Assembly (NCBI GenBank): GCA_028688055.1
Contig: JAQTYZ010000002.1
Location: forward strand, 4,256 to 68,255
Source of the DNA: Patescibacteria group bacterium
Lineage (GTDB): Bacteria > Patescibacteriota > Patescibacteriia > Buchananbacterales > UBA6539
Direction: 5' to 3'
DNA: 64,000 nucleotides
Each line of letters starts with the position of its first letter. Within the stretch, counting starts at the first letter, position 1. The position numbers and the translations under genes were made by a program. Below are positions 478 through 25,023 of this stretch, piece after piece. The notes beneath the pieces were generated by a model, which ran no database searches, was not told the origin of the DNA, and saw only the letters and a list, made by a program, of their open reading frames with translations.

Positions 478-672
478 ATGGCAGATTACAAGCTGCTCAC
501 AATGGAAGAGGTAGCCAGAGTCTTAGGAGTTTCTCTTAAGACTGTTTATCGTTGGATTGATGCTGGCGAATTGCCGGTAAGTCTAATCGGGGAGAGGACT
601 TACCGGATTTTTGAGCGTGACTTGATTAAGTTTGTTTATTCGCGCCAAATTAAGAAAAAAAAGCCAAAATAA
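478..672 (+). CDS. small excisionase-family helix-turn-helix DNA-binding protein
   Basis: The 64-aa protein carries TMEEVARVLGVSLKTVYRWIDAGELP, a classic HTH_17/MerR-superfamily excisionase-type HTH, and has a lysine-rich tail. Confidence 0.6.
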   Translation: MADYKLLTMEEVARVLGVSLKTVYRWIDAGELPVSLIGERTYRIFERDLIKFVYSRQIKKKKPK

Positions 673-731
673 GCGACAAAACAAAGGTCGAAAAAAAACG
701 AGAAAACCAAAAATAAATTGAGGAGGAAAAA

Positions 732-1490: not shown

Positions 1491-1497
1491 TTAAAAA

Positions 1498-8835: not shown

Positions 8836-8842
8836 CTGAACA

Positions 8843-11299
8843 ATGTTAATGTTTGTTTTCCTAAAAAAATTGTTAGCCCAAATTGAAGACCTGCCAATCA
8901 AGCCCTGGCAACTATTGGCCTGGTGGTATTTTATTACTATTATCAGAACCCTCCTTGAAGCTTTCACCGACAGTGGGGGGCATTTAAGCGGCTTCCAGCC
9001 ATTTTTTCTTCAATATCCTGCCTACTACGCCGTGGCCTTCATGGGCATAATTATTATTTTAAAATTAATTACCAATGAAAAAATAGAAAAAATCGCCAAA
9101 GTCTTTTTTCTTTTTTCTTTCTTTATTTTTATTGGCCCAACTGTTGACGCGTTGTTATCAGCCTCAAATAATATAAGCTACATCAGCGTTGACAACTGGC
9201 CACTGATATTAAAATCGTATCTCACCATTGGCCTGGGTGGTATTTTTTTCCAAGGGACCACTAGTGGTATCAAATTCGAATTAATATTTGCCCTGCTATC
9301 AATTTTTCTTTACCTGAAATTGAAAGGTGTCACAATTATAAAATCACTGCTTGGCATTAGTAGCATCTATTTTTTTATTATTTCAACTTTTTTAATCACC
9401 ACCTACATTAAATTTTTTTATCTCTATTTTGGGCTTACCTTTAATTTTACCTCCCAATTTATTGGTTTATTTTGGACCATAATAACTACCATCAATACTT
9501 TAATATTTTTTTATTTATGGGATAAGACTAAATTAAAAAACTGGTTTTATGGCCTCGACTGGTTTCGTACGACCTTGGTCTGGCTGGTGATGACGTGGGG
9601 GATCGTTATCTATTTCAACCAAAGGTTCGACCCAGCACTTTGGCAATCTGATTGGCCAGCCGTCATTCTAAAAATGCTCGCCGTGACGATGGTCGGTTTT
9701 CTCATTTGGCAAATTATTAGACTAATCAACGATTTTGTCGATTTTGACTTTGATCATTATTCACAGTCGCCCAATTTATTAAACCAACTGCCAAAATCAG
9801 ATTTAATTACCGTCCTAATATTTTATTTAATTTTCTTTTTATTTTTGGCGCTGCAAATAAATTATACTTTTTTTGTCCTGCTGTTAATCTATATCCTCAT
9901 CGGCTATTTTTACAGCTGTAAACCAATATTTTTAAAACGCCATTTTATTTCAACCGCGGTTGCTTTAAGCCTAAATTATCTCCTCGCTTTTTGGGCCGGC
10001 TATGCGGCTTTTTTTACCACCGCTGACTCCCTAAATTTAGTGCCAAGAAACATCAGCCTGCTAATATTTCTCACCTTTGTCGCCGTGATCGGTTTTAAAG
10101 ACGTCAAAGATGAATTAAGTGACAAGCAACAAGGAGTAGTCACCTTGGTCACTCGCTACGGAGTTAATTGGGCCGCCAAAATTATTAGCTTAATGATTAT
10201 TTTAGTAATTCTTTTGGGCGGCTGGCTGTGGCACAGTTGGCCCTTATTAATCTTCGCGTTAATTGCCTTCGCCGCCGCTTATTATTTGACTAACGGTTTT
10301 ACAATTTTTAAAAATAAAATTGCGTTGGCTATTACTCTAATTTTATTTTCAATTGCCGCGCCCATCGTCGTTAGTTTTAATAAACCACTTCAAGCCTCAA
10401 TTGGTGCCATCAATTTAAAAAATGACGCCGGTTGGCATCCAACGGCCAATCAAGAAGCGTGGGATATTTCAAGCCTCTTAACCGATCAAAACGGCGATCG
10501 CTACTTTTTTTCCCAGAACTACTCGCTGTTAAACGGATCAACTCTAACTTTAATTGATTTACAGACTAAACAATATTACAAAGAATATTTTCCTGATGAG
10601 GGTTTCACGGCCATTACTAAAAATATCTTAGCAATCAACCAATATATTCCGGGCTACCATGGCAGCAATGTGTTTTATGACAATAACCGCGGCCCTTATA
10701 TTTTAAAAACCTATTTTGCCGATGGTTTACTTGAATTGACTGCCAAGGAAAAATCTAATGGCAATTTAATGGCGGCCACACCTAATGGCGTACTGAGTTT
10801 AAAAAATGGGGGAATGATTAATCAGTATTCACAACCAAATTTGGTAGCCAAAGGCCGCTTAATTTTTACCGGCCAAAAAATTATTAACATTTCTGGCCCA
10901 TTTTGGTTAGAACATCGTTGGGGTAATTTTACCGCTGACTGGCGCCAATTAAATTTAATCACCATTAATCTCGACGATGAGACAAAAATAATGATTGCTT
11001 ACCTGGGTTATGACAACGGCAGCCTGGCTTACGGTGGCCTTTTAAAAAATAACGAACTACAAAATTTTAGTCAGCTAACAATCCGGGTCGATCAAGACTG
11101 GCAAAGTCCAACCACCAACCAAAAGTGGCCAATCAAATTGAATTTAGCCAATCGCAATATTAATCTCGAGCTAGAAGCCATTTTACCAAATCAAGAAGCT
11201 CCCCAAAATACTTGGTCGGGACCAATGACGGTAACAGGCGAAGTTAATGGACAGCCAGTTGCTGGTTGGGCAAATTTTAGTGAGCTACGCCCCGACTAA
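8843..11299 (+). CDS. polytopic membrane protein: UbiA-like prenyltransferase core fused to a ~300-aa C-terminal soluble domain
   Basis: More than 12 hydrophobic segments. FKDVKDELSDKQQG is an Asp-rich motif like the second UbiA motif. The C-terminal domain (WLEHRWGNF...) is possibly CrtC/AttH lipocalin-like. Confidence 0.5.
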   Translation: MLMFVFLKKLLAQIEDLPIKPWQLLAWWYFITIIRTLLEAFTDSGGHLSGFQPFFLQYPAYYAVAFMGIIIILKLITNEKIEKIAKVFFLFSFFIFIGPTVDALLSASNNISYISVDNWPLILKSYLTIGLGGIFFQGTTSGIKFELIFALLSIFLYLKLKGVTIIKSLLGISSIYFFIISTFLITTYIKFFYLYFGLTFNFTSQFIGLFWTIITTINTLIFFYLWDKTKLKNWFYGLDWFRTTLVWLVMTWGIVIYFNQRFDPALWQSDWPAVILKMLAVTMVGFLIWQIIRLINDFVDFDFDHYSQSPNLLNQLPKSDLITVLIFYLIFFLFLALQINYTFFVLLLIYILIGYFYSCKPIFLKRHFISTAVALSLNYLLAFWAGYAAFFTTADSLNLVPRNISLLIFLTFVAVIGFKDVKDELSDKQQGVVTLVTRYGVNWAAKIISLMIILVILLGGWLWHSWPLLIFALIAFAAAYYLTNGFTIFKNKIALAITLILFSIAAPIVVSFNKPLQASIGAINLKNDAGWHPTANQEAWDISSLLTDQNGDRYFFSQNYSLLNGSTLTLIDLQTKQYYKEYFPDEGFTAITKNILAINQYIPGYHGSNVFYDNNRGPYILKTYFADGLLELTAKEKSNGNLMAATPNGVLSLKNGGMINQYSQPNLVAKGRLIFTGQKIINISGPFWLEHRWGNFTADWRQLNLITINLDDETKIMIAYLGYDNGSLAYGGLLKNNELQNFSQLTIRVDQDWQSPTTNQKWPIKLNLANRNINLELEAILPNQEAPQNTWSGPMTVTGEVNGQPVAGWANFSELRPD

Positions 11300-11657
11300 A
11301 TTAGGGTCAAAACTTTACTAATTACAGTACTGATAAACAGTAATTTATTTATTTTAATGACCATATTTGAAAACAAAAAAATAAACAAAATTCAGTCCCA
11401 AGACCTTGTCCAGCCCATTCAAACAACTGCAATTGCTTTTGTGGTAATTACGACTTGTCGCGACTAAATTTAAAAACTGTTTTAATAGTGGAAACTTTTT
11501 ATATCAGCTTCGACTGTCAAACCAAACAAGAAATTATTACTAAATATTCTATATCAATATATTATTTCTTTCATACTACTGTCTTGCGGCTATAAACTTC
11601 TTTATACCGGTGACAGAAATTATGTTTATAAGGTGAAATAACTTATAAAAAATAAAT

Positions 11658-12629
11658 ATGCCAGCCAAAGAACCGTTATATTTTTTTCTTCACATTCCTA
11701 AAACCGGCGGAACAACAATTAATCAAGCACTGGCCTCAACCTATAAAAATGGCGAGTTCATTTTTTTACCATCAAATATTTTAGACGAAAAAGCAAGCAG
11801 AAAATCCATTAAAAATTATTTACTAAACATTCCAGTGGCTAAAAAAAATCTAATTAAAGTGATTGCTGGTCATGATGTTTATTACGGTTTACATAATATT
11901 TTTCCCAACCGCGAACCACGCTATATTGCTTGTTTTCGCCACCCAGTTGATTTAACAATATCTAGCTACAATTATTATTTAACCATTACTAATAAAAAAG
12001 ACTGCAATCCAACAAATATTGCAAAACAACCCATTAATGATATTAAAATACTAAATTTTCAAGACGTCTTAACAAAGTATGAGGAACTCCATAATTTAAC
12101 TTTTAAATTTCTCGCTGATCGCCTGCTCGATAATAAACGTTTAAATAAACACCTAAATCTAAAGGATGTAGACTATATTAATACAAAAAATAATGATTTT
12201 ATTTTAAAAAAAATTAAAAATATATTGTCGCATTTTTATTTTTTAGGTATAACGGAAAAATCGCAAGATGATTTTTTATTTATTGCTGATAAATTTGGCA
12301 TAACTAAGTACATGCCAAAAGATAATATTTCAACAAAATTTTTTAATCTTAGCACCAATCCAACAATTAAAAATGCCATCGAACAATATAATCTCTTAGA
12401 TCAAAATTTATACGACTATGCAGTGCAAGTTAATAATAGTTATAAAAAAAATAATCAAAATTTTAATTTAAGGGTGAAAAAAATAAATAATATGTTTACT
12501 CTGGGGTTGATTATGGATATGTTTAAAATAACGCATTATCCTCAAAATATCTATCGCTTTTCTGATTGGCTCAAACAAAAATCTAACTTGTATAAAAAAA
12601 TATTAGCATACTTTAAAAATTTACATTAA
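11658..12629 (+). CDS. sulfotransferase family protein
   Basis: N-terminal FFLHIPKTGGTT is a PAPS 5'-phosphosulfate-binding-loop motif of Sulfotransfer_2/3 families. Very AT-rich gene. Confidence 0.65.
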   Translation: MPAKEPLYFFLHIPKTGGTTINQALASTYKNGEFIFLPSNILDEKASRKSIKNYLLNIPVAKKNLIKVIAGHDVYYGLHNIFPNREPRYIACFRHPVDLTISSYNYYLTITNKKDCNPTNIAKQPINDIKILNFQDVLTKYEELHNLTFKFLADRLLDNKRLNKHLNLKDVDYINTKNNDFILKKIKNILSHFYFLGITEKSQDDFLFIADKFGITKYMPKDNISTKFFNLSTNPTIKNAIEQYNLLDQNLYDYAVQVNNSYKKNNQNFNLRVKKINNMFTLGLIMDMFKITHYPQNIYRFSDWLKQKSNLYKKILAYFKNLH

Positions 12630-13336
12630 TGATTTTTGACTAGACGTAAATTATTTTTTACCTCCAATGTCATTTCTCGTATTGTTTTTATTTCAAAATT
12701 TTCTATCAGTAATAATTCATATATTTTTTTCAAATACTCACTTGGCCAAGGACAATATCCTTCATTATCGAGGCCATGTGCTCTCAAAATTAACCAACTA
12801 TTAGCTGGCAGCTGGCTTATTTTTTTCAAGGCCTTTTCTATTGTTAATCTGCCCTCAAATGGGTCAAAAGAAATCAGTTCTAAAAGGTCAATTTTTTCTA
12901 ATGAATTATAAATATATTTACCATCACATAGTCTGATAGAGTCGTAGGGTGGATTGTCTGGAGATTTAATGCCGTAAGGCATAGCCAATGAATAAGGACC
13001 AGGATGAAACTGTTGGATATATTTTAACGATTCAATATAACCGTCTGGGCCATCACTGCTTGGCCCAGCATGGCAGACAGTATGAGAACTTATTTCATGA
13101 CCTAGATTAGACAGCTTCTTCCATTGCTCAAAGTCTCCGTGATCTAAGCCGATATTACATTTGTCATTAATCTTTATAGGATTTGGTTTTAGCCATCCAG
13201 TCACAATATAAAATATTGCTTTATTGGGATAGATAATGTCGTTTACTTTATTGGCGCTATTTATAAGGCCATCATCAAAGGTAAATGACACGTAACGATT
13301 AATTATCTTTTTGGGTTTGTAAAAAAAATTAAACAT
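12626..13336 (-). CDS. polysaccharide deacetylase (CE4/NodB-homology domain)
   Basis: TFDDG and HTVCH motifs. Confidence 0.65.
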   Translation of the reverse strand: MFNFFYKPKKIINRYVSFTFDDGLINSANKVNDIIYPNKAIFYIVTGWLKPNPIKINDKCNIGLDHGDFEQWKKLSNLGHEISSHTVCHAGPSSDGPDGYIESLKYIQQFHPGPYSLAMPYGIKSPDNPPYDSIRLCDGKYIYNSLEKIDLLELISFDPFEGRLTIEKALKKISQLPANSWLILRAHGLDNEGYCPWPSEYLKKIYELLLIENFEIKTIREMTLEVKNNLRLVKNH

Positions 13337-13342
13337 AAGTTA

Positions 13343-14353
13343 TTACAGGATATTTTGCAAGTATTTTAATTGTCTATAAAGTTTAATTTTTGTTCCTACC
13401 AGTAATGAGATGTCACCTTTCAGGAAAAAGATCAATTCTAATGGTAAAAAAAACAGTTCTTTCAAGATAAATACCATATCATAAAATGGCAAATCAACGC
13501 CTAGGTTTCTTTTTAGGGTACATTCAGACAAATAAGATAAATTATACATTTTTACGGATGATTTAATGCTTTTTTGATTATAGCTTCCATTAAATTCTCG
13601 ATGGGTATCTGGAACTCGGTGGTGTTTAATTGATACTTGATCTATGAAGTATGGGAAGTGCGGCCAGAGAGTTTCAATTTGCCGAATCAGATCAGTATCA
13701 TCGTGAGAAAAAATAATTTGCTGGTTGAAGTGGACGTAGTCAAAAATCTTTTTTTTGATTGACAAATTCCCGGCCGCTATTGTTCCTGCAATTGGCTGAT
13801 TAGTGACTAAGTTTTGTTTAAGAACTGTGTCATATATTTGCCCCTGACCTAAAAAGAAACTGCCATTAGCATATTTATGATAAAGGCGACTTAGCCATTC
13901 AGGATCAACTTCACAATCATCATCAATAAAAATTAAGAGTTCTCCGGTAGCCATTTTGATTCCTTTATTCCGGCCAGCGGATATGCTTATTATTTTCTCC
14001 TGAAAAACTTTTAATAATTTATTATTTTGGGCATATTGTTGTAAATATATATAAGTTCCATCATTTGAATTATTATCAATAATAATTATTTCATAAGGTA
14101 AGGTATCAAATTGAAGATGTTCTAGGCTGGCCAAAGCATATTTTTTAAGGGCATTCAGACGATTTCTAGTGGTGATTATAATTGAAATCTTATTAATTTG
14201 ATCTCCAATAATTTCAGTGGTGGTTTTTTTTATTATATCGACGGGTAATGTTTTTTTATTATATTTTTTATTCAATCCCTCATATATTTTAAATGGAAAA
14301 TAATAAATATAATTCTTTATTTTTTTTGGCATCAATTGCAACAGATACTTCAT
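13343..14353 (-). CDS. family 2 glycosyltransferase
   Basis: ISIIITTRNR...IIIDNNSNDGT...IFIDDDC (GT-A fold with DxD). Confidence 0.75.
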   Translation of the reverse strand: MKYLLQLMPKKIKNYIYYFPFKIYEGLNKKYNKKTLPVDIIKKTTTEIIGDQINKISIIITTRNRLNALKKYALASLEHLQFDTLPYEIIIIDNNSNDGTYIYLQQYAQNNKLLKVFQEKIISISAGRNKGIKMATGELLIFIDDDCEVDPEWLSRLYHKYANGSFFLGQGQIYDTVLKQNLVTNQPIAGTIAAGNLSIKKKIFDYVHFNQQIIFSHDDTDLIRQIETLWPHFPYFIDQVSIKHHRVPDTHREFNGSYNQKSIKSSVKMYNLSYLSECTLKRNLGVDLPFYDMVFILKELFFLPLELIFFLKGDISLLVGTKIKLYRQLKYLQNIL

Positions 14354-15369
14354 GATTTTTGGCTTAATTTAAATATTTCTTTGTCTGATATTTTTCTCGT
14401 TGCCTGGATGTTTTTTCTCAACTTCAAAGTCTTTGATAAATTATGTAAATTCCAATAAAAAGCCATGAACGGGATGGGCAAAAATTTAATTCGTTTGATA
14501 AAATAATTTTTGTTTTTGAATAATGGCACTAGCTTGCCATTCTCTATTTTTCTATTTAATAAATATCCGCCAGGATATAGGATAAAATAATCCAATATAA
14601 TAATCGGCAGCGCTTTAACGATATTTTTAAATTCGTAATTTTTTAAAATTGTATAAAGTGAATTTCGACGACAAAGATATATTTTTTTAAACTGATAATT
14701 GCCCCAGGTAGCACTACCTTTATGATAAACTACGGCACTAGGCTCAAAGATAATCTTATAACCCAATAAATTTGCCCGGTAACCCCAATCCAAATCTTCA
14801 AAATATGAATAATAGTTTTCATCTAGTAACCCGACATTTCGAAATGACTCCCTTTTTATTAGTGTGGACCCCCAACAGCTTGCCAAGATATCTTTCTGAA
14901 AATTATTTACCTCCGCTTTGTTCCGATTGAAATTTATATCCAGCCCATAACCAGAAAAAGTAAATCTTCCACCCTGGCTATTGATTATGTTCGGATGATC
15001 ATAAAAGAGCATATTAGAGGCCACGGCTACTATCTTCCCATCAGATTTAATAGCGGTTACAAGATTTTTCAGCCAAGCCTTATCAACCCTAATATCATTA
15101 TTTAAAATAGCTATATAATCAGGATTATATTTATCCAAAGAATAATTAATCCCATAATTTACCACCTTAGCAAAGCCCAAATTATTTTTTAAAGCTACAA
15201 CCTCTATTGCGGGAAATTTATTTTTTATAAAAACAATACTACCATCTGTCGAACAATCATCTATTACTATAATTTTTATATTGTGATAAGTTTGGCTTAT
15301 TAAAGAAGACAGGCATTCTTGAAGATGGCCTTCCCCATTAAAATTAACTACTAGAACAATAGTTTCCAT
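14350..15369 (-). CDS. family 2 glycosyltransferase
   Basis: VLVVNFN...VIDDCSTDGS, GT2 signature. 4-bp overlap with the downstream GT2. Confidence 0.75.
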   Translation of the reverse strand: METIVLVVNFNGEGHLQECLSSLISQTYHNIKIIVIDDCSTDGSIVFIKNKFPAIEVVALKNNLGFAKVVNYGINYSLDKYNPDYIAILNNDIRVDKAWLKNLVTAIKSDGKIVAVASNMLFYDHPNIINSQGGRFTFSGYGLDINFNRNKAEVNNFQKDILASCWGSTLIKRESFRNVGLLDENYYSYFEDLDWGYRANLLGYKIIFEPSAVVYHKGSATWGNYQFKKIYLCRRNSLYTILKNYEFKNIVKALPIIILDYFILYPGGYLLNRKIENGKLVPLFKNKNYFIKRIKFLPIPFMAFYWNLHNLSKTLKLRKNIQATRKISDKEIFKLSQKS

Positions 15370-15371
15370 AG

Positions 15372-16106
15372 TTAGATATCATAATTTTTTACCATGCCAT
15401 CTAATCTTTTTATTTCAAAACCGACGCGTTGGCATTTATTGCCACAATTGGGACAAGACTCTCCTTCCAAAATCGTACCTACATCTCCAGTGCGAAATCC
15501 CTCTGGATAATGATTGGAATAAAATATCAATTCATTATTTAGCGAATCGACCTCAAACTTGCCTGATTCGGTAAAAACATGGTAACCACATGACAAATCA
15601 TCACAAGTTGTCCAGGCGACTCTCGCTTCAGTGAAACCATAGGTAGCATAAATTATTGTTCCTGGGCAGAGCATCCTTGATTCTTGAATAAATTTATTGT
15701 TGATGCCATTAGCTCCGATAATTAATTTCATCCGACTGAGATCGACATTATTTTCTTTGGCTAGGTTTAATGTCTTAAGAATGTAACCGGGCAGGCCGGC
15801 AATCATTTCCGGTGGAAATGATTTCATGATATTTATGGTTTTTTCTGATGTCACATGTTTGCCGCCACCGGTGTTTATTGTTAGAGAGCCGGTTATTTCT
15901 CCATACATGGCACCTAAATAATACCCCAGGTGAGGGGCAAAAGGTAATAAATTATAATAAACTCCGGCTTGCTTGTGGATCATCGAAAATCTAGAAATAC
16001 ATTTTTCCATGTTGATTTTGTCTTCCATGGTGTAAATTATCGGCTTAGCGCTTTTACCGGATGTTCCCGAACTGAAGAGAAGGAGAATGGGAGTGTTATT
16101 TTTCAT
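15372..16106 (-). CDS. adenylate-forming enzyme fragment (PaaK/CapK-like), N-terminally truncated
   Basis: The AMP-binding P-loop SSGTSGKSAKP lies at residue 12 rather than ~90-100, and there is no room upstream. C-terminal CPNCGNKC. Confidence 0.45.
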   Translation of the reverse strand: MKNNTPILLLFSSGTSGKSAKPIIYTMEDKINMEKCISRFSMIHKQAGVYYNLLPFAPHLGYYLGAMYGEITGSLTINTGGGKHVTSEKTINIMKSFPPEMIAGLPGYILKTLNLAKENNVDLSRMKLIIGANGINNKFIQESRMLCPGTIIYATYGFTEARVAWTTCDDLSCGYHVFTESGKFEVDSLNNELIFYSNHYPEGFRTGDVGTILEGESCPNCGNKCQRVGFEIKRLDGMVKNYDI

Positions 16107-16113
16107 ATGTTTC

Positions 16114-16863
16114 TTATTTATGAAATACTAATAATAAATATTTTCGGTTATCATCGGCGTATATTTTTTTAGAAAATGACCAATTTTTTAAGTATTTTTT
16201 ACTATTTAAATCTTTGGCTAGATTAATTGCAAAATCAGTTGTAGGAATGATATTTTTTGTTAGATCCTGCTTTTCAATAAGTACATATTTATTTTGACTT
16301 AATATTTTTATTAATTTAACTTCAGTATTCTTTAGTGGTACACCCTCCTTATCAAATTCATCAAGAATTATTAGACTACTATGTTCTTTTAAGCAACTTA
16401 CTATATTTGATATAGCTAATTCAGTATTTATAAAATATTGGTATGATTCTATTAAAACCGCAAGATCAAATTTTTTATCAATTTTTAAATTTTCTGCCGA
16501 AGTAAGAAGAAATGATACTTTGGGATTATGTTTTTTACCATACTTGATAAAATTTTGGTCAGGCACCACACAAAGACAATGGTAATTTTTATTCATAAAT
16601 TGTCTGGCCATACTGCCGATTCCACCGCCAACATCAATAATATCTTTTGTATCTACTGGAATTTTATCAATTACTAGTTTTGATAGATTTTCTTGAGCGT
16701 CAATTATGCTATCATTTTTGTTTTTGTAATAACCATAATGTATATGTTTCCAACCAAAAACTTTTAAAAAAGTAAAATGGGCCGACAAAAAATCCTTCTC
16801 CTTAATAATTTTAATTCTGAGATATATTATTTTTATTTTATAAATTATTTTTGAATAACACAT
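16114..16863 (-). CDS. class I SAM-dependent methyltransferase
   Basis: DVGGGIGSMA motif I and an acidic motif II. Confidence 0.65.
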   Translation of the reverse strand: MCYSKIIYKIKIIYLRIKIIKEKDFLSAHFTFLKVFGWKHIHYGYYKNKNDSIIDAQENLSKLVIDKIPVDTKDIIDVGGGIGSMARQFMNKNYHCLCVVPDQNFIKYGKKHNPKVSFLLTSAENLKIDKKFDLAVLIESYQYFINTELAISNIVSCLKEHSSLIILDEFDKEGVPLKNTEVKLIKILSQNKYVLIEKQDLTKNIIPTTDFAINLAKDLNSKKYLKNWSFSKKIYADDNRKYLLLVFHK

Positions 16864-16866
16864 ATT

Positions 16867-18969
16867 TTATATTAATAAACTCCAATCGGCATCAATACAT
16901 GTTAAATATAAATCGTCAGTTTCAATTGGGTAGCAAGAGTCATTATAAGTAAAATAAATCTCCCTTCCTTTATAATAGTTTCTCAAATGTAAAATTTTCA
17001 ATAGCCTCATATCAGTTGTAACTAATCTTAATTTTCTCACCCCCAATTTTTGGCAAAAATATTCAATGGCTAAAAATATACTAGCATTAATATATTCATT
17101 TAAAATCAGTATATCGGAAATAACAGCATTAGTTTCATTTTTCTCTAATGAAAAATAACCGATTATTTTGCTGCTTTTTTTAACAATAAATAAGTCCATT
17201 TTTTTTGGGGAATCTATTATTCTCCATTTTATAAATTCCCAATTTCGAACTACCCCAACATTAATTTCAGTTTTTTTACGTTCCCAAAGGCTGTTTATTT
17301 CTTTTTCACCTTCATCGGCACTAACTTTTTCGATAGTTAATTCACTCTGAATGATTTTCTCATTAAAGTTTAATATTTTAGGCCAACATAACCAGTATAA
17401 TCTTTTTTCAAGGAGATTAGATTTGATGGTTTTATTTGCTTGATGGGCGCCAGCAGCTGGAACCACTCTGCCATATACAGAATTCATTTTTTTATTGACA
17501 AACCCCCATGGCAAAAAATTACCTTGATCAATAAGCATACTAAAACAACTTTTAATAAACCCCTGATCTCGATATTGTTTTTCTATCCCCACCTCAGCAA
17601 TTTGATGAATAATTTGCTCCTTTGAATAGTATTTGATTTTGTGGCGTAAAACAGCAAATTGTCCGATTATTTCTTTTGTGCTATTCTCAGCAACAAGTAT
17701 CATTGAGCCCATTGGACAGTTCTTATATTTCCAAATCCATTTAGCATAATCCGTGGGATCAAAAATTTTATTGATAATATTGATCAGCCCCGCTTCATCG
17801 CCAGCTTGGTATGGCCTTATTTTGTAAAGGAGTTTTTCTAATTGTTGTTGGTTGTCAGCCATTTTTTTTGTGGCGAATGGCAACTGTTTTAATTTTTTAT
17901 AAAGCCATGGCGAATATTTTTTCAAAAAAATTCCAACGAGTCCCAACAACCTATCGATCAAAATTTTACTATTAATCCACATCGAAGCAGGCTGTTTGAA
18001 TTTCAATAAAAAATAATATAAATCCGGAGATAGTTTTTTTAGAGCAAGACCCCACCAACCAATAAATCGATCAATAAGCCATTTTGGGCAGGAGAATATT
18101 ATTTGCCTAATTAAATGATGATGATATTTTTTCAATTCTTCGTCACTCCAAACAAATTGAGCTGATGGACGGTTATTTAAATTAATTTGGTCAGCTTTGC
18201 TTAAGTTATCTTTCCATGTATTGTAAATTGATTGGCAATAATAAATTGGTTTTTGATAAGAAATAAAATGCACCATAATTGATTTTAGCTTTTTTGGTTC
18301 TATGTAATAATTCTTTAATTGATTATAATTCAGACAGTAGATAGGTGATAAATTATCCCACTCGTTGGCAAAATATAAACTCAGGATAAATTCGTCAATG
18401 TTACCAATATGATTTTGGTATTTAATTAGGAGAGATTTTAAATCATCAAATGTTTTGTGTGTTATGATTTCAGTATTGATAACAAGGAAGTTACAGCAAG
18501 GTATTGGCAAGTTGAGATTATATTTTTTCAGATTAGTTTGTTGGAATTTATTATTAAGCTCGTAAAATCTTAAAAAATGTTTCAATTTAACCTGCCAGAA
18601 GAAATACCGAATACCCGTTGCGGCTATTTTATTTGTGTCTAATAAATTATCTAATGAGGCAGTTACTATCAAGTCAGCATCCAGAAAAATTATTTTATCC
18701 CATTGCTTGAATTCTGATGTAAATAAATAGAGTTTACTCAATATGACTGCCGGCCAGCGCCCAACTAATTTTTCTGCCAATGGTTCGCATTTTTTGATTA
18801 AGATGCCTTTGTCTCTAAACCATTTCAAATCTTCTTCCGGCACTTCATGAGCTAACAGCATATAATCGCCTTGCCAACCAGAATTAAAATAAACACTGCT
18901 AAATAATTGCTTAGCAAAGTCTAAATATTTTTTATCGGCTAGAGTGACAAGAAGATTTTTTTTATTCAT
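16867..18969 (-). CDS. GT8-like nucleotide-sugar transferase fused to a C-terminal GNAT-like domain (700 aa)
   Basis: N-terminal LVTLADKKY...IIFLDADLIV (GT8/glycogenin-like DxD). Middle amphipathic repeats. C-terminal VGIEKQYRDQGFIKS is GNAT motif-A-like. Confidence 0.5.
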   Translation of the reverse strand: MNKKNLLVTLADKKYLDFAKQLFSSVYFNSGWQGDYMLLAHEVPEEDLKWFRDKGILIKKCEPLAEKLVGRWPAVILSKLYLFTSEFKQWDKIIFLDADLIVTASLDNLLDTNKIAATGIRYFFWQVKLKHFLRFYELNNKFQQTNLKKYNLNLPIPCCNFLVINTEIITHKTFDDLKSLLIKYQNHIGNIDEFILSLYFANEWDNLSPIYCLNYNQLKNYYIEPKKLKSIMVHFISYQKPIYYCQSIYNTWKDNLSKADQINLNNRPSAQFVWSDEELKKYHHHLIRQIIFSCPKWLIDRFIGWWGLALKKLSPDLYYFLLKFKQPASMWINSKILIDRLLGLVGIFLKKYSPWLYKKLKQLPFATKKMADNQQQLEKLLYKIRPYQAGDEAGLINIINKIFDPTDYAKWIWKYKNCPMGSMILVAENSTKEIIGQFAVLRHKIKYYSKEQIIHQIAEVGIEKQYRDQGFIKSCFSMLIDQGNFLPWGFVNKKMNSVYGRVVPAAGAHQANKTIKSNLLEKRLYWLCWPKILNFNEKIIQSELTIEKVSADEGEKEINSLWERKKTEINVGVVRNWEFIKWRIIDSPKKMDLFIVKKSSKIIGYFSLEKNETNAVISDILILNEYINASIFLAIEYFCQKLGVRKLRLVTTDMRLLKILHLRNYYKGREIYFTYNDSCYPIETDDLYLTCIDADWSLLI

Positions 18970-18970
18970 T
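18668..18970 (-). repeat. 303-bp perfect direct repeat, copy A (5' end of the GT8 paralog)
   Basis: Identical to 19668..19970 at an offset of exactly 1000 bp. Confidence 0.9.
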
Positions 18971-19969
18971 TTTTATTAATTTTTTTAAAAAGTAGTATGA
19001 TTTTGGATAATCTTTTTTAAGCCAAATACCAGTTAATCCGATTAAGAAGTCGAGTGACTCAATCAGCCGATATAACATCGCATAAGGAATAAAAAATACT
19101 CTTCGCATTTTTAACAGTAATTCGTATTTTTTTATTTCAAAATGACCCCAAATCTTGGTTGGCGGCAGGCGCAAGCTTAAATTAATTTCATCAGCACGAT
19201 CAAGGTTGTAGCGCCATATCTTATAAAAATAGGGGTGATAATCAATCGGTTTCTGGCAATTGAAAAAATTAATAATGATTGCCCTCGTTTTTTGTGGTTT
19301 TAGACAATTATATTTGATTAAGCTGAAAACATTAAGACAATAGAGCGGTGATATTATTTGTAGTTGTTTAATAAAATATAAAGTTAAGATCATTTCTTCA
19401 AGTGCTCCAAAAATAGTTTGATATTTATCTGCCAATTCTTTCAACCCAGTAAATGTATTTTTTTTTATAATAGTGGTGGAAAAGACGAAAACTCCACCAC
19501 TTAACATGAGGGAATTCAAGTCGTAAAGTTTTTCGCCTTCGCGCCTTATTTTTTTGTCAGCCTTATAAAAAAGATGTTTGAGACGGGATTTTTGCAGATA
19601 CAAGCTGTAGTTTGTAAAGCCAGCTATATTTTTAACTTCAAGTAAGTCATCTAGTGAAGCACAAACAATCAAGTCAGCATCCAGAAAAATTATTTTATCC
19701 CATTGCTTGAATTCTGATGTAAATAAATAGAGTTTACTCAATATGACTGCCGGCCAGCGCCCAACTAATTTTTCTGCCAATGGTTCGCATTTTTTGATTA
19801 AGATGCCTTTGTCTCTAAACCATTTCAAATCTTCTTCCGGCACTTCATGAGCTAACAGCATATAATCGCCTTGCCAACCAGAATTAAAATAAACACTGCT
19901 AAATAATTGCTTAGCAAAGTCTAAATATTTTTTATCGGCTAGAGTGACAAGAAGATTTTTTTTATTCAT
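18962..19969 (-). CDS. GT8-like nucleotide-sugar transferase; paralog of the upstream gene without the GNAT part
   Basis: The first ~100 aa are identical to the 700-aa protein. The same DxD motif is present (FLDADLIV). Confidence 0.5.
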   Translation of the reverse strand: MNKKNLLVTLADKKYLDFAKQLFSSVYFNSGWQGDYMLLAHEVPEEDLKWFRDKGILIKKCEPLAEKLVGRWPAVILSKLYLFTSEFKQWDKIIFLDADLIVCASLDDLLEVKNIAGFTNYSLYLQKSRLKHLFYKADKKIRREGEKLYDLNSLMLSGGVFVFSTTIIKKNTFTGLKELADKYQTIFGALEEMILTLYFIKQLQIISPLYCLNVFSLIKYNCLKPQKTRAIIINFFNCQKPIDYHPYFYKIWRYNLDRADEINLSLRLPPTKIWGHFEIKKYELLLKMRRVFFIPYAMLYRLIESLDFLIGLTGIWLKKDYPKSYYFLKKLIKNE

Positions 19970-19970
19970 T
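19668..19970 (-). repeat. 303-bp perfect direct repeat, copy B
   Basis: Identical to 18668..18970. Confidence 0.9.
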
Positions 19971-20285
19971 TACTCCGTTAAATACTTATTTTGCAATAAT
20001 AATCTTAAAGACGGGGTCTAGCTCACCAAACCAGGAATCCGTATGATAATTAATTATTGGTAGGAATATCTCGAAACTACCAATCATTTTTGGGCCAATT
20101 GTAACATCAACAAAAAAATCAACGGCCGGGCCTGGTAATACCGGATCGGGAAGCTTGAGTCTTAGGCCGTCATACAAGCGGTCTCTTAACTCACAACCAT
20201 CTTAAAGAAGTTAAAAGTTAGGACCAATATTGTTCATTTTAAAGGAAAAGTTTACTTTTTGTCCAACCTTAAATATAGAAGGTGT

Positions 20286-21374
20286 TTAGGATGATGCCTT
20301 TATCTTTTCCTTTATTTTATCAATAAAAATCTTAGTATCAAATTTTCTAGCTTGCTTAATGCATTCTTCTCTATATTTTTCCGGACTTAAACCAATATTC
20401 CTTACTGCCTCTACTATTTTGTATTCATCGATATTGTCAATCAATTTTCCCGTCACCCCGTCAATCATTGTTTCACGATAGCCCCCTTCATTCGGAGCAA
20501 TAACCGGTTTACCCGATGCCATTGCCTCCAAAGGTGCCAAACCAAAATCCTCTTGATACGAAGTTGTAATAAATCCCTTGCAAGTTGCGTAAAGTTTAAT
20601 TAAGTCTTGATCACTAACCCAACTAATTATTTCAACATTATTTGGTTTTAAGTTTTGAATTTTTTTTAGGTATTGCTTAAAGTGTTTTGATTGTTCATAA
20701 CTGCCGACGATGACTAACTTTTCAGTTGGTAACCTGCGAAATGCTGCCAGTTGTATTTCAATCCTCTTGTAACCCACCAAACGATTAACCGAAAGCCAAA
20801 AATCACCGTTGTTTTCATACTGATATTTAGTGGTGTCAATCGGCGGATAAATCACGCTGGACTCACGATGAAAGTATTGTTCAATTCGCTTTTGTACCGT
20901 GGCCGAAATCGCTACAATTTTATTAACCGATCTAACGTCACGCCGATTACCGGCTCGCCTTAATTGGACCCAAACGTCAAATATCCAACGGGCATACCAG
21001 GGTACAATATTATTGCGGGTATCTGAATAAAGATCCCAAATCTCTCGAAGCGGCGAATAAACATACCACAAATTCGGCCGATTATGGACTGCCGCGCTCA
21101 TCGCCCAATCACCGGCAATAATGTAAAAATCATAGGCCGTTTTTAAATTCAAGCGCCGAAATTTCCAATAAGCTGCTTCTTGCTTAAATGGAGCATTAAT
21201 GGGTATTTTGCCAATACTATAAATATTATTCGTCGCAAACCCCATTTGCCTTATCTTGGCGTGGTCAATATTTGTGGTATAAATATCTGCTCCAAGCTCT
21301 TTGGCCAACATTAAATCTACCAGCTCCGCGCCACCAATGTTGTCCATAAAATTATGAAAAATTACAACTTTCAT
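20286..21374 (-). CDS. family 4 (GT-B) glycosyltransferase
   Basis: EDFGLAPLEAMASGKPVIA is the EX7E motif. Confidence 0.8.
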   Translation of the reverse strand: MKVVIFHNFMDNIGGAELVDLMLAKELGADIYTTNIDHAKIRQMGFATNNIYSIGKIPINAPFKQEAAYWKFRRLNLKTAYDFYIIAGDWAMSAAVHNRPNLWYVYSPLREIWDLYSDTRNNIVPWYARWIFDVWVQLRRAGNRRDVRSVNKIVAISATVQKRIEQYFHRESSVIYPPIDTTKYQYENNGDFWLSVNRLVGYKRIEIQLAAFRRLPTEKLVIVGSYEQSKHFKQYLKKIQNLKPNNVEIISWVSDQDLIKLYATCKGFITTSYQEDFGLAPLEAMASGKPVIAPNEGGYRETMIDGVTGKLIDNIDEYKIVEAVRNIGLSPEKYREECIKQARKFDTKIFIDKIKEKIKASS

Positions 21375-21383
21375 TAATTTAGA

Positions 21384-23318
21384 TTATTTAGCCTCAACAT
21401 TAATTGAAACTTTCAAAGAATCCCCAAACCAACCGATGCTTTCTTGAAACATTCTCAGTTCGGTTTCATAGACGCCACGGAAAGAGCCACGATATCTTGT
21501 GATTATTCTAAACTCATACTCTTCACCGGGCAGTATTTTTTTTTCCACTCTTTTAAACGTCTGCCCAGACACATCCCGTAATTCAAAATTTAAGGCCGGC
21601 AACCAGGCTGTTGTTCCGCTGTTCTTAATCGTAACCGTCAACGTCCTCGCCTCACCAACTGTCGTTGCTTGAGGGATATCACTACTAACAATTTTTGCAT
21701 CAAAATAATTCTGTTTTACCAAATAGCCAGAATTATTGCGATAAACAATATTAGCCAAATCATAATACTTTTCCTGATTTAACTCTTGGAAATTAGTAAT
21801 CCCGACAATCGGGTCTTTGATGTAATCATTAAATTCGCCACTAATTTTTAGGTCATTATTGGTCACAATGTATAAATGCTTAGCGTGTGGTGGAAATAGC
21901 ATCGCCTGATAAGCCTCAATCTCGACGATTGATGATGACACCGAATAGCCTTGATCGTTTGCCCAGTCAACTAGCTCGCGCACTTCATTAGGAATATATC
22001 TAATGTTACTACGAACGTCATAAAAGGGCGTGCCAAAAAAGTCCGTTTTAAAAATAAAAATCGACGGGTAGGCAAAAGTTGCACTAACCACAAAAAAAAT
22101 GATCAATGGCAATCTGATAATTTTTATTTTATCAATTGCCCAGACCAAACCTTGAGCGGCTAATATACTCATCGGGGAAAAAATAAACTCCAGCGTTCTA
22201 AATGGGTCAAAGGGGATATCCCGTAAATTATGCACCAAATAAAAATGGTAAAGTGCTACTCCCCATAAAACGGGAAAATATAAACACGCCAAAACTAAAT
22301 TATTAGTAATCCGATCGCGACTGACAAAAAATCCAACCATAATCAAAAAACCAAGCACCATAAATTGAACCCAAATTTGTGGCGGGTAGGCTATTGGCAA
22401 AATATTATATACGACCGCTCGAAAAAAAATCAGCAGTGTCGCCACCAGCACTATTACCAAAGCCGGAGATTTTATCCGATTAAGATTAAGCCATTGTTTG
22501 ATGACATTAAGCTTTAAAAAAATAAGAATGATTGTCGACGCACCAACCAACAGAAAAAATGGATTCACGCTTAAAATCTCTTGCAACAAAAAAATGCCAC
22601 GCCTAAAAAATAACGCCCAATAAACCAATGAGATAAACGTCACCCCACCAATTGTCAACCAAGCCACCAAAGCCTTTTTTTTATCATCAATAAAAACCAT
22701 AGTGTACATCATAATCCATCCAATGATAAACAACGCCGACCCATAATGGGACATAATCATTAATATAAATATGGCCATTAACCTTAACCAGCGACCAACA
22801 GTCAATGAAACCGACGGACCTGAACCGAAATACTGGTCAAATAAATAGATCACCAACGGGAAAAAAAACAGTCCCATTGTTTCCCTGATTGGCTGAGCGC
22901 TCCAGTAAATGTGAGGGATGAAAATGGCTATTAAAAAAAGTGCCCACAGGCTAATCTGGTTTGAAAAATATTTTTTTGAAAACAAATAAAAAAATAGTAA
23001 CCCCAAACAGGCGAAGACCTGCGGTACAAATAAATAAATTTTTAGAAGCTCAAAATCAGACAAGACGTAAAGACCATACACCAAAATATGTAATACCGGG
23101 AATGCACCATAATCAAAATAACTGCCATACAGATGGATTTGTCCAAAATCGGACAAATATTTAACCTGCGTAAAATCACGCATTCCCTCATCGGCAAACG
23201 GGATATCATACCCCAACAAATATGGCAAAACTCGAACCACGTAGGCAACAAATAAAATCGCCGCCACGCAAAGCTTTTCATTTCTAAAAAATGGGCTGAT
23301 TTTATTAAGGTAAATCAT
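21384..23318 (-). CDS. polytopic membrane protein (GT-C-like) with a C-terminal beta-sandwich domain
   Basis: About 12 TM segments followed by a ~180-aa soluble tail (TLTVTIKNSGTTAW). Confidence 0.45.
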   Translation of the reverse strand: MIYLNKISPFFRNEKLCVAAILFVAYVVRVLPYLLGYDIPFADEGMRDFTQVKYLSDFGQIHLYGSYFDYGAFPVLHILVYGLYVLSDFELLKIYLFVPQVFACLGLLFFYLFSKKYFSNQISLWALFLIAIFIPHIYWSAQPIRETMGLFFFPLVIYLFDQYFGSGPSVSLTVGRWLRLMAIFILMIMSHYGSALFIIGWIMMYTMVFIDDKKKALVAWLTIGGVTFISLVYWALFFRRGIFLLQEILSVNPFFLLVGASTIILIFLKLNVIKQWLNLNRIKSPALVIVLVATLLIFFRAVVYNILPIAYPPQIWVQFMVLGFLIMVGFFVSRDRITNNLVLACLYFPVLWGVALYHFYLVHNLRDIPFDPFRTLEFIFSPMSILAAQGLVWAIDKIKIIRLPLIIFFVVSATFAYPSIFIFKTDFFGTPFYDVRSNIRYIPNEVRELVDWANDQGYSVSSSIVEIEAYQAMLFPPHAKHLYIVTNNDLKISGEFNDYIKDPIVGITNFQELNQEKYYDLANIVYRNNSGYLVKQNYFDAKIVSSDIPQATTVGEARTLTVTIKNSGTTAWLPALNFELRDVSGQTFKRVEKKILPGEEYEFRIITRYRGSFRGVYETELRMFQESIGWFGDSLKVSINVEAK

Positions 23319-25023
23319 TGGTTTTATCCTGCCGGTATTTAATAATCTCCGGCCAGTTAGTATTATAAACCATCATTAAGCCATCATCATACACTTTAGC
23401 AAAATGTGAATCATAATAATTAAAAATATTATCCGTCACCGGTGTCGTCTCGAAACTGTTGGAGTAAAGAATTTTTTTCATCGACGTCGATAGAATAATA
23501 TAGGTGTCAGTAATACCAGCACCAATCTCATCGTAGCGATAAAAAAGTCGCTGATAATCTAAGTCCTTATCTTGAAAAAAATGAACATCATTTTTTCCTA
23601 AATATCGAAACAGCGCGGCTGTTCTGAGATCACTCATATATAGCCCCGGCCAATCCAACTCAATTATTTTGCCAGCCGACTCAACTTCTGCCTTCTCGTA
23701 ATAACGCCTCATTGTAAATGGATCCCTAAAAATCATAAATTCTGAGACTATCAATAATACTAACGTTCCGACCACAATGGTTTTGCGCCACTTATAATGA
23801 GTTGTCCAGTAGATTGCGAAAGCCACATAGGCCAACGGGAAAGAATAGTCCAAAATCCGACCATAATAAAATTCGAGACTTAGCGTTGCCGCAATACCAA
23901 CAACACCCAACAACCATCCTAAGATTATGCTCGAGTTAACGTTTTTTTTGCTGAAGTAAAAATGATATAACAAAAATAGAATATAAAAATGAGTTAGAAT
24001 AACTTGGGCAAAACTATTGTTTAATGTCACCGTTGAAATGTAATAATTTTTAACCCCGAGCTTCAGCAAACCGTCAAACACCGGCTGCTGAAAAAATATC
24101 AAAAAAGCAGCCGGGGCCAACAGGGCTAAAAATAAATATTCGGATTTAACATAACGGCCTAGCTTTGATGAAGTTTTTATTGTAAGAAAAGCCACTAAAC
24201 CAACAAAAAAAATACCGCTCAAGATGAAAAATACGTGGGTTATTCCACTATTAATAAAAGCATTACGGATTAAGACTACTTCACTGCTGTCAACGTAAAT
24301 TAACCACAGTAAGTAGAAAGCAAAAATAAAACTTATTACTAAAAAGGCAAGTCGATCAGCAAGTTTAAACCATACCAAAGAAACCACTAAACCACCGATA
24401 ATCGCGACTAAGGCCGCGGCACCGGTATGGTAAGAGGTGAGTGACACCAGGGCCGAAATTATAAACAAAAAGATACATAAAATGTTTTTATTTTTTAAAT
24501 ACTTTACTAAAAATAACAGCGACAAAAAAATAAAAACATAACACAGCCCGCTATCGTTAACAATGATATTTCTGGTATAGTATAAAAAATTTTCTGGGGC
24601 AACGGCAAACAATGCCGCGGTTAAAACACCGCCAATCAATTTGCCGGATAGTTCCCAACCTAAAAATAACAAGGCGAAAAAACCAATAAAATAAATAATA
24701 TAAAAATTTCCCAGCACCGCGTTAAAAACATAACCAAACCAAAATTTCATCGGGTATTCAGCAATCTGATCGGTAAAATGTCTCGCCCCTCCCTGGTTGA
24801 CATTTTCCCCGCCCTGAAGCTCAAACGCCTCATAAGGTGATAATTGAAGATAAAAATGTTGCGGCGGCCAAGATCGCAAACAATAGCCGACTATGAACAT
24901 CAAAAAAACGCCGGCAACAAAAAACGTTTTCCGAAGTGAAAGATAATTTCTAGATTTATGGGTTATCCACAAATCAATTCGGCTAATAACTTGCCTAACT
25001 AAATCCCAATAAGTTACGATCAT
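23305..25023 (-). CDS. polytopic membrane protein, GT-C-like
   Basis: Many hydrophobic helices with large loops. Confidence 0.45.
   Translation of the reverse strand: MIVTYWDLVRQVISRIDLWITHKSRNYLSLRKTFFVAGVFLMFIVGYCLRSWPPQHFYLQLSPYEAFELQGGENVNQGGARHFTDQIAEYPMKFWFGYVFNAVLGNFYIIYFIGFFALLFLGWELSGKLIGGVLTAALFAVAPENFLYYTRNIIVNDSGLCYVFIFLSLLFLVKYLKNKNILCIFLFIISALVSLTSYHTGAAALVAIIGGLVVSLVWFKLADRLAFLVISFIFAFYLLWLIYVDSSEVVLIRNAFINSGITHVFFILSGIFFVGLVAFLTIKTSSKLGRYVKSEYLFLALLAPAAFLIFFQQPVFDGLLKLGVKNYYISTVTLNNSFAQVILTHFYILFLLYHFYFSKKNVNSSIILGWLLGVVGIAATLSLEFYYGRILDYSFPLAYVAFAIYWTTHYKWRKTIVVGTLVLLIVSEFMIFRDPFTMRRYYEKAEVESAGKIIELDWPGLYMSDLRTAALFRYLGKNDVHFFQDKDLDYQRLFYRYDEIGAGITDTYIILSTSMKKILYSNSFETTPVTDNIFNYYDSHFAKVYDDGLMMVYNTNWPEIIKYRQDKTNDLP

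Follow-up and report, generated by a model that had tools for sequence, protein, structure and literature searches.

The 64-kb stretch of patescibacterial DNA analysed here, called the window and used as the reference for all coordinates, carries at 11300-20285 a strongly AT-rich cassette of genes predicted to tailor a surface glycan. This cassette was probably exchanged within its own lineage, by recombination from a member of the Buchananbacteria with a lower content of guanine plus cytosine (GC), and has not been ameliorated; it would represent a replaceable set of glycan-tailoring genes. Seven of its genes are co-directional on the minus strand and one, the sulfotransferase gene, is convergent on the plus strand; they are tightly spaced, with overlaps of 4-8 nt or gaps of less than 10 nt. 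A hydropathy scan found no signal peptide or transmembrane (TM) segment in the encoded proteins except one C-terminal hydrophobic segment in the first of two family 2 glycosyltransferases (GT2a), and the chemistry is therefore taken to be cytoplasmic. The island is made up as follows.

11300-11657, plus strand: left junction spacer, in which GC falls from 0.45 to 0.29, with a frameshifted gene relic at about 11371-11638
11658-12629, plus strand: putative carbohydrate O-sulfotransferase of 323 amino acids (aa), Sulfotransfer_2 / HS2ST-HS6ST type, soluble, called from motifs, family profile and predicted fold
12626-13336, minus strand: predicted polysaccharide/oligosaccharide de-N-acetylase of carbohydrate esterase family 4 (CE4), 236 aa, Polysacc_deac_1 at 24.1 bits (cut-off 23.1)
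13343-14353, minus strand: GT2a, 336 aa, with the one C-terminal hydrophobic segment and a DDD motif, Glycos_transf_2 at E 2e-24, 86.7 bits
14350-15369, minus strand: second family 2 glycosyltransferase (GT2b), 339 aa, Glycos_transf_2 at E 6e-25, 88.6 bits
15372-16106, minus strand: stand-alone core of a PaaK-like ANL adenylate-forming enzyme (mini-ANL), 244 aa, Pfam AMP-binding at 34.8 bits (cut-off 29.9) over profile positions 160-330 of 384
16114-16863, minus strand: class I methyltransferase dependent on S-adenosylmethionine (SAM), 249 aa, Methyltransf_11 at 35.8 bits, IIDVGGGIG motif
16867-18969, minus strand: fusion protein of 700 aa, an N-terminal retaining family 8 glycosyltransferase (GT8; Glyco_transf_8 at 34.6 bits, cut-off 24.3) followed by a region of about 340 aa with two weak GNAT-like halves
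18962-19969, minus strand: second GT8, 335 aa, tandem paralogue of the GT8 domain of the fusion, Glyco_transf_8 at 36.7 bits
18670-18969, no strand: perfect 300-bp direct repeat, copy 1, the first 100 codons of the fusion GT8 gene
19670-19969, no strand: perfect 300-bp direct repeat, copy 2, the first 100 codons of the second GT8 gene, exactly 1000 bp from copy 1
19970-20285, no strand: right junction spacer between the cassette and a family 4 glycosyltransferase (GT4) gene, GC 0.364, with a patch of 0.42 at 20000-20200

The base composition sets the island apart. Its GC is 0.309, against 0.410 for the whole window and 0.386-0.471 (mean 0.428) in 372 windows of the same size placed elsewhere in the stretch. 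By segment, GC was found to be 0.458 at 1-8842, 0.379 in the adjoining UbiA-lipocalin gene (8843-11299), 0.307 at 11300-19969, 0.379 at 20286-27645 and 0.431 at 27646-64000, and the island departs from its left flank by z = -6.7 and from its right flank by z = -9.5. In 200-bp windows the left edge is abrupt, with 0.45 at 11100-11299 and 0.29 at 11300-11499; at the right edge GC recovers around 19970-20300 to an intermediate 0.38 only, and values of at least 0.43 are regained after about 27.6 kb. Because of this merely intermediate return on the right, a single-segment model favours a broader low-GC block at 9047-25469. The composition is nested: a GC-depressed surface-glycan region encloses a far more AT-rich core. 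GC at third codon positions (GC3) is 0.17-0.31 in the island genes (0.37 in the mini-ANL gene) versus 0.40-0.50 in housekeeping genes, the methyltransferase gene being the most AT-rich of the cassette (GC 0.248, GC3 0.168), and the GC-normalised dinucleotide distance (delta*) between the island and the rest of the window is 137, where other windows of this size give 14-90; by dinucleotide signature the island is thus the strongest outlier of the whole window. The preliminary description of this DNA had seen by eye a break in composition at about 11300 and 20250 and had called for a sliding-window GC analysis; such an analysis, together with the dinucleotide signature, places the island outside the range of all other windows and confirms the break in GC, GC3 and delta*. 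The accompanying statement that the flanks are GC-richer holds for the core flanks (0.458 and 0.431); the vertically conserved glycan genes next to the island are depressed too (0.38), and part of the contrast therefore stems from gene class.

Two outliers of high GC lie beside PolA, a DHDPS-family gene at 31496-32563 (GC 0.545) and, at 35584-36942, the gene of a 452-aa protein without a Pfam domain (GC 0.568, GC3 0.70). Both are syntenic in relatives, which also show a GC peak just downstream of PolA, and this anomaly looks persistent and vertical.

The same cassette, in the same order, was found on a 19-kb contig of Candidatus Buchananbacteria recovered from three data sets (L085, L086 and L087). 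There the genes run from the sulfotransferase through CE4, GT2, GT2, a 244-aa ANL protein and the methyltransferase to the GT8-GNAT fusion, with 70% DNA identity to the window cassette over 7.4 kb and protein identities, in that order, of 61, 63, 60, 78, 82, 61 and 54%. Flanking orthologues are only 37-55% identical between the two, and the L085 cassette lies on the opposite side of a conserved block (a 643-aa protein, a GT2 with a C-terminal TM domain, here GT2-TM, and a 490-aa protein), beside the gene of a giant protein, so that the junctions differ. The L085 contig is AT-rich throughout (flanks 0.30-0.335), and the cassette is not anomalous in it. Mean GC3 of the cassette is about 0.27 in the window and about 0.26 in L085, a difference of about 0.015, whereas GC3 of the flanking orthologues differs by 0.09-0.14 (window and L085, respectively: GT2-TM 0.381 and 0.289; 496-aa protein 0.396 and 0.310; 644-aa protein 0.398 and 0.280; giant protein 0.457 and 0.315). 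Since the cassette has nearly equal GC3 in both genomes while the flanks track their host, its composition in the window is decoupled from that of the host. By dinucleotide distance the island stands at 32 from the L085 cassette, 62 from the L085 flank and 137 from its own flanks.

The window itself is bacterial chromosome around the replication origin, oriC: dnaA (41705-43066) and dnaN (43325-44473) lie in it, the GC skew reaches its minimum near 43 kb, and PolA, SMC, YidC and PBP1 are also encoded. A distance of about 22-30 kb separates the cassette from oriC. PolA has its relatives, at 67-72% identity (top match 72%), in metagenome-assembled genomes named Candidatus Buchananbacteria or Patescibacteria, an affinity to Patescibacteria, or the candidate phyla radiation (CPR), which proves right the earlier guess of a small genome. 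The cassette forms the distal end of a long minus-strand array, directly downstream of a conserved core with a 10-TM protein, GT2-TM and GT4. The array runs from the 10-TM 496-aa protein through GT2-TM, two 12-13-TM proteins, GT4, GT8, the GT8-GNAT fusion, methyltransferase, mini-ANL, GT2b and GT2a to CE4, and its core is composed as follows.

20286-27645, minus strand: conserved glycan core as a whole, GC 0.379, described by Pfam matches and TM counts
20286-21374, minus strand: GT4
21384-23318, minus strand: first 12-13-TM protein
23305-25023, minus strand: second 12-13-TM protein
25020-26162, minus strand: GT2-TM
26155-27645, minus strand: 10-TM protein of 496 aa

The right flank (GT4, GT2-TM, 496-aa protein, KhpA, S16 and SMC) is conserved in relatives, with different tailoring sets beyond it in L083, L004, L090 and L092. 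Thus the locus of L083/L003, whose PolA is 72% identical, keeps SMC, S16, KhpA, a 493-aa protein, GT2-TM and GT4, and after GT4 carries radical-SAM/SPASM, GT4, methyltransferase and triple-GT2 genes together with a Wzm/Wzt transporter. The 496-aa protein and GT2-TM are syntenic in L003, L004, L009 and L083, the former also in L010, where the locus ends; GT4 follows GT2-TM in L004 and L083. A GT2-GT4 pair followed by variable tailoring genes was also found in L090 and L092, of which one is a bacterial and one an archaeal contig. Comparison of the cassette proteins with 80 PolA loci, where few relatives have readable context, gave no match except one GT2 at 27% identity. For both the sulfotransferase and the mini-ANL, the nearest homologues bear the annotation Candidatus Buchananbacteria, so that best hits beyond the host lineage, which the preliminary description had looked to as a sign of transfer, did not appear. 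Contig scans with the mini-ANL returned nothing for the single sequence and one 1.1-kb fragment (L089) for a three-sequence alignment; the distribution of the cassette therefore rests on exact-protein look-ups.

At the left junction a relic overlooked in the preliminary description appears to be a recombination scar. It matches the last 50 or so codons of a polytopic membrane-protein gene of the 496-aa family and ends just upstream of the sulfotransferase start codon. A hidden Markov model (HMM) of this family, made from seven orthologues, detected two six-frame fragments, one at 11489-11638 (E 5e-5, HMM positions 448-495) and one at 11371-11592 (E 0.016, HMM positions 444-467); besides the real gene these are its only matches in the window, the next best having E 0.16. 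The right spacer at 19970-20285 yielded neither a relic nor any similarity.

Lateral arrival, as the preliminary description proposed, best explains the composition, but the source appears to lie within the lineage, which is neither a foreign import nor simple vertical descent. Import from outside the lineage does not fit, since the best homologues are Buchananbacteria and no close relatives were found on viral contigs. A phage-borne origin is likewise unsupported, as viral contig scans returned only distant Sulfotransfer_2 members (22-37% identity) and no relatives of GT2b. That description would also have taken the same island in vertically related genomes as a sign against acquisition; the cassette does recur in L085, but at different junctions, and the closest PolA relatives are without it. 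A more serious account, though a rather doubtful one, is that the cassette is ancestral and vertical in Buchananbacteria, was lost or replaced in some members and locally rearranged, and owes its AT-richness to a lasting gene property such as amino-acid usage, low expression, relaxed selection or selection for AT-rich DNA. The identical gene order in two Buchananbacteria would agree with such descent, as would best homologues that all fall within the lineage, cassette identities of 54-82% that resemble those of housekeeping proteins against comparable relatives (PolA 69-72%, SMC 71%, DnaA 77%), and the lack of mobility genes. At about 30% core protein divergence, however, GC3 should have equilibrated, as it did in the flanks and did not in the cassette; the cassette also occupies opposite sides of the conserved core in the two genomes, with a truncated relic at one junction, and different genes occupy the site in the two nearest relatives by PolA whose context could be read.

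That the AT-rich block is an assembly or binning chimera joining low-GC Buchananbacterium DNA to this genome is very improbable. In its favour, the DNA comes from a metagenome-assembled genome, the cassette also occurs in a low-GC relative, and short-read contigs break at the perfect 300-bp repeat inside the region. Yet Logan contigs, which another assembler produced from run SRR22315507, the single run that yielded these sequences, match 7926-18697 and 19942-22374 at 100% identity. The former runs from the giant-protein and UbiA genes over the left junction into the cassette and the latter from GT4 into the repeat, which itself lies between two cassette genes, away from the junctions with host DNA. 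Both junctions are therefore inside independently assembled contigs and were assembled consistently, and a chimera was judged unlikely on this single-run evidence.

Exchange within the lineage, the favoured reading, has several observations weighing against it. Pfam scans found no integrase or transposase domain in the window, and neither a tRNA nor flanking direct repeats were seen there, so that the mechanism of transfer is not visible. The L085 contig bears no housekeeping gene, the core GC and distance of its host being inferred from flanking genes only, and the higher identity of the cassette could reflect stronger constraint and not recent shared ancestry. Vertically conserved neighbouring glycan genes are GC-poor as well, and at least one syntenic gene just downstream of PolA is a persistent high-GC outlier in all relatives, showing that outliers can persist vertically; composition alone is therefore an imperfect marker of horizontal transfer here. 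As to the parts that the cassette enzymes are given, the GNAT assignment is sub-threshold, and canonical ANL enzymes require a C-terminal subdomain that is missing from the mini-ANL. No APS (adenosine 5'-phosphosulfate) kinase, ATP sulfurylase or other gene for synthesis of the sulfate donor PAPS (3'-phosphoadenosine 5'-phosphosulfate) was found in the window, so that sulfation would rest on genes outside it, and no recognised exporter family (Wzx/Wzy or Wzm/Wzt) is encoded there.

The protein at 11658-12629 is predicted to be a genuine sulfotransferase of HS2ST/HS6ST-like type, with a carbohydrate hydroxyl as its presumed substrate. Alone, it gives only a sub-threshold match to Sulfotransfer_1 (16.4 bits, cut-off 22), and PF03567 was not reported for it at E<=0.01; its homologues P0124-P0126 carry PF03567, and the NCBI name of the identical protein is 'sulfotransferase family 2 domain-containing protein'. 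Three motifs were recognised, HIPKTGGTT (the 5'-phosphosulfate-binding site, 5'-PSB, residues 12-20), RHPVDLTISSY (the 3'-phosphate-binding site, 3'-PB, residues 94-104) and GH, and among 16 family members K15, R94, P96 and S102 are invariant and Y104 nearly so. The first two align with LHIQKTGGTT and RDPVSRYLSEW of HS6ST and with PKTASTS and RDPIERLVSYYY of HS2ST, while the invariant G71-H72 aligns with the HGH segment of HS2ST, whose histidine has a catalytic role. The profile of the 16 sequences matches HS6ST of the PDB at 1.3e-21 and HS2ST at 5.7e-15. In an AlphaFold2 (AF2) model with a mean predicted local distance difference test score (pLDDT) of 76.2, the fold also points to this family, since the top seven Foldseek matches in the PDB are HS6ST and HS2ST (E 2e-6 to 8e-5, probability 1.0, TM-score 0.49-0.59). 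The family profile, these matches and the invariant PAPS motifs bear out the sulfotransferase call of the preliminary description. The protein thus shares with HS2ST and HS6ST the PAPS-binding motifs, the GH motif of the catalytic region and the predicted fold, but differs from them in being only 13-18% identical, bacterial, soluble, without a Golgi-type membrane anchor and itself below the Pfam threshold. Its close family is tiny: a set of 5.8 billion proteins holds five relatives that reach 30% identity.

Sulfotransferases had been called uncommon in such small genomes; they are indeed rare but not unique. In L004, whose PolA is 72% identical, the gene at L004:290-1105 on the plus strand joins an APS kinase (PF01583, E 6e-37) to a nucleotidyltransferase domain of the cytidylyltransferase-like type. 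It is convergent with and immediately beside the GT4 orthologue at L004:1102-2181, which places a predicted PAPS-synthesis gene at the same variable glycan locus in a close relative. On contig L088 (5088-10975), two Sulfotransfer_2 genes flank a Wzm/Wzt ABC transporter together with pyruvyl transferase and GT2 genes; L088 also has a GT4 homologue, 52% identical to that of the window, and similar glycan genes, and its source is probably a related organism with small cells. Sulfotransferases are thus a recurrent feature of glycan loci of this kind. A literature search gave no paper relevantly linking sulfotransferases to Patescibacteria, and the Buchananbacteria papers it returned were surveys.

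Of the other enzymes, the two GT2 proteins and the methyltransferase are, by their profile matches, unambiguous assignments. GT2b has its best NCBIfam match in a rhamnosyltransferase subfamily (1.5e-19), far below the cut-off of that model, and motifs of the DxD type in the GT2 and GT8 proteins read DDD, NND/ED and DAD. The CE4 protein, which has no signal peptide, hydrophobic segment or TM segment, shows metal and catalytic motifs (TFDD, H-T-V-C-H, PY and LRAH), the arginine of motif 3 not being evident, and its L085 orthologue matches Polysacc_deac_1 at 36.4 bits. The preliminary description had listed a sulfotransferase, CE4, GT2s, a methyltransferase, an adenylate-forming enzyme and a GT8-GNAT protein. 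Pfam matches or motifs uphold the sulfotransferase, CE4, the GT2s, the methyltransferase and GT8, the last above its cut-off, but the GNAT part falls below the Pfam threshold in the window protein, the adenylate-forming enzyme is present only in part and the second GT8 was missing from the list.

The mini-ANL has an AMP-binding core with the motifs SSGTSGKSAKP (P-loop, A3), YGFTEA (A5), RTGD (A7) and KRLDG (hinge, A8), but only 244 aa. It begins at the P-loop and ends at the hinge, lacking about 115 N-terminal residues and the entire C-terminal subdomain, which contributes the A10 lysine and is needed by canonical ANL enzymes for adenylation. No reading frame in the window shows a trace of the missing subdomains. 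That the gene is a fragment left by a pseudogene, or half of a split gene, was ruled out by this, by their absence from the neighbouring proteins, by the conserved length of the family (eight proteins of 233-247 aa among 5.8 billion) and by the identity to the L085 orthologue, the highest of any cassette gene. The protein thus appears to be a conserved, unusual stand-alone core. Full-length relatives of 460-520 aa, which align through their residues 115-380 or so, are PaaK/FlxY/F390-like, with best scores to the FlxY, PaaK and DVU_1553 models. The core motifs SSGTSGK, YGFTEA, TGD and hinge are those of PaaK- and coenzyme-F390-synthetase-like enzymes, from which the mini-ANL differs by its truncation at both ends and its eight-member family. 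The NCBIfam DVU_1553 model has only 331 positions and ends where the full-length relatives start their C-terminal subdomain. PaaK-like adenylate-forming enzymes occur in polysaccharide clusters (CapK-type). Weak NCBIfam matches, both far below cut-off, link the methyltransferase to the DVU_1556 family (E 1.5e-4) and the mini-ANL to the DVU_1553 AMP-dependent ligase (E 6e-6); the two families are named for neighbouring Desulfovibrio genes, and a conserved pairing of ANL and methyltransferase may be hinted at.

The two GT8 genes share the repeat. The second GT8 is 57% identical overall to the fusion, with the first 102 residues identical and the remainder at about 40%, and the copies of the repeat are 100% identical over 300 nt, identity dropping abruptly to near-random on both sides. 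Such boundaries would indicate that gene conversion took place recently or that recombination swapped the donor-binding half. Each Logan contig ends 28 nt inside a copy. In the C-terminal region of the fusion, Acetyltransf_9 reaches 20-21.6 bits (cut-off 25), while the second half of the L085 orthologue matches Acetyltransf_1 at 21.7 bits (cut-off 20.7); sequence searches of the PDB with this region came back empty, and a single-sequence AF2 model of the GNAT-like half, at pLDDT 42, was discarded as unusable.

From the enzyme classes, the product would be a sulfated, deacetylated and methylated glycan, for which the following pathway may be proposed. The conserved core would start a polyprenyl-phosphate-linked sugar at the cytoplasmic face of the membrane, and the four glycosyltransferases of the cassette would extend it. 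CE4 would strip an N-acetyl group and the GNAT-like domain re-acylate or acetylate the sugar, the methyltransferase and the PAPS-dependent sulfotransferase would cap hydroxyl or amino groups, and the mini-ANL would activate a carboxylate substituent. Polytopic membrane proteins of the locus would export the finished glycan to the cell surface, where the 2445-aa protein encoded nearby may carry it. The two unannotated 12-13-TM proteins at 21384-25023 are candidates for export or polymerisation; relatives carry pairs of ABC_tran and ABC2_membrane proteins at their glycan loci.

On the left, the gene at 8843-11299 (plus strand) encodes an 818-aa, 11-TM UbiA prenyltransferase fused to a C-terminal lipocalin/CrtC-like domain. 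This protein could supply a polyprenyl-linked donor to the adjoining polytopic glycosyltransferase-like proteins. No homologue of it was found by a pattern scan of GTDB species representatives or in any retrieved locus of a relative, and the left side therefore gave no synteny anchor. Beyond it, the giant protein of 2445 aa (1498-8835, plus strand) has an N-terminal TM segment and no Pfam domain; L085 has a counterpart of about 2370 aa beside its glycan genes, with local identity of about 30%. The giant protein is possibly a surface protein and glycosylation target.

The rhizobial Nod pathway joins a GT2 synthase (NodC), de-N-acetylation of the NodB type, N-acylation, methylation of the NodS type and sulfation of the NodH type. 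A product of this kind, a discrete decorated oligosaccharide or glycolipid that serves a presumed episymbiont as signal or adhesin toward its host cell, would be in line with the parallel between the two systems: GT2, CE4, acyl- or acetyltransferase, SAM-dependent methyltransferase and PAPS-dependent sulfotransferase, all cytoplasmic, with an ANL-type protein for acyl activation. The cassette has no polymerase or chain-length genes, and in relatives the locus is accompanied by ABC-2 transporters of the NodIJ/Wzm-Wzt type. Such a product is nevertheless decidedly unlikely, because NodC is matched only negligibly (about 17-19 bits where the cut-off is 550, E 7e-4 to 3e-3), no component belongs to a Nod family, a NodA-family acyltransferase is missing, the sulfotransferase is of the HS2ST/HS6ST type without significant similarity to NodH, and the cassette is continuous with a GT2-TM/GT4 core and many GT-C-like polytopic proteins, as is typical of envelope glycan assembly. 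The window also adds two GT8 genes and the GT4/GT2-TM core to the Nod set and holds no nodPQ-type PAPS genes.

A tailoring cassette for an envelope glycan resembles the replacement flexible genomic islands, or 'glycotype' islands, which include proteobacterial O-antigen and capsule loci (PMC4898812). Like them it forms a surface-glycan set at a fixed locus beside conserved genes, where relatives carry different but functionally equivalent sets; its composition is deviant, the same version occurs in a different genomic background, and with no dedicated mobility genes its exchange by recombination is presumed. It differs in that its CPR host has a reduced genome and lacks both an outer membrane and lipopolysaccharide, that only the right flank is conserved, that its version has no Wzx/Wzy or Wzm/Wzt, and that the genomes were compared at the distance of genera or families and not of strains, which bears on any claim of strain-level replacement. 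Relatives have alternative tailoring sets at this locus, of which the cassette would be one, and such sets would give each strain or lineage a 'glycotype' of its own that matters for recognition by phages or attachment to a host. As AT-rich replaceable glycan islands are well established elsewhere, a known pattern is extended here to a new lineage and no new mechanism is proposed. The predicted sulfation of a glycan in Patescibacteria is a modestly new point, and the mini-ANL and the GT8 pair with its perfect, converted 300-bp segment are small curiosities.

A broader proposition is that some CPR/Patescibacteria make sulfated, de-N-acetylated, re-acylated and methylated surface glycoconjugates, resembling Nod factors or glycosaminoglycans on an ultra-small episymbiont, and swap the cassettes between lineages to change recognition by hosts or phages, using an as yet undescribed stand-alone 244-aa adenylation core without its C-terminal subdomain. 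It is put forward because the cassette, the L004 APS kinase and the L088 Sulfotransfer_2 genes all stand by equivalent glycan genes, and in this full form it is unlikely. An attached life on host cells is the generally accepted picture of CPR bacteria, and to our knowledge almost nothing is known of their surface chemistry; sulfation may be suggested as part of the repertoire. With a variable tailoring cassette beside a core glycosyltransferase pair that is 60-67% conserved across CPR, DPANN and Omnitrophota, the locus may set surface identity.

GT4 of the window is 60-67% identical to more than 100 proteins of CPR bacteria, DPANN archaea (Nanoarchaeota and Woesearchaeota) and Omnitrophota. 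In the contigs looked up, including an archaeal one with RNase P p30, its gene comes straight after a GT2 gene whose stop codon overlaps the GT4 start codon. GT2-GT4 thus appears to be an unusually conserved cross-domain glycosylation pair among ultra-small organisms.

Elsewhere in the window, Rfam and tRNA scans of its whole length gave no match, and a scan of 11000-21500 for promoters and terminators gave counts at or below the expectation from shuffled sequence and was not used. A second glycan or envelope cluster was found at 51395-61681. It encodes four proteins that have 10-12 TM segments and no Pfam domain (51395-54308 and 56438-59751), a tandem of three small GT2 proteins (54305-56435) and a membrane protein of the DUF2079 family (59738-61681). 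The window ends with the gene of a small protein at 63043-63639 on the minus strand, in which the pilin domain of type IV secretion systems was recognised (PF18895, E 5e-7).

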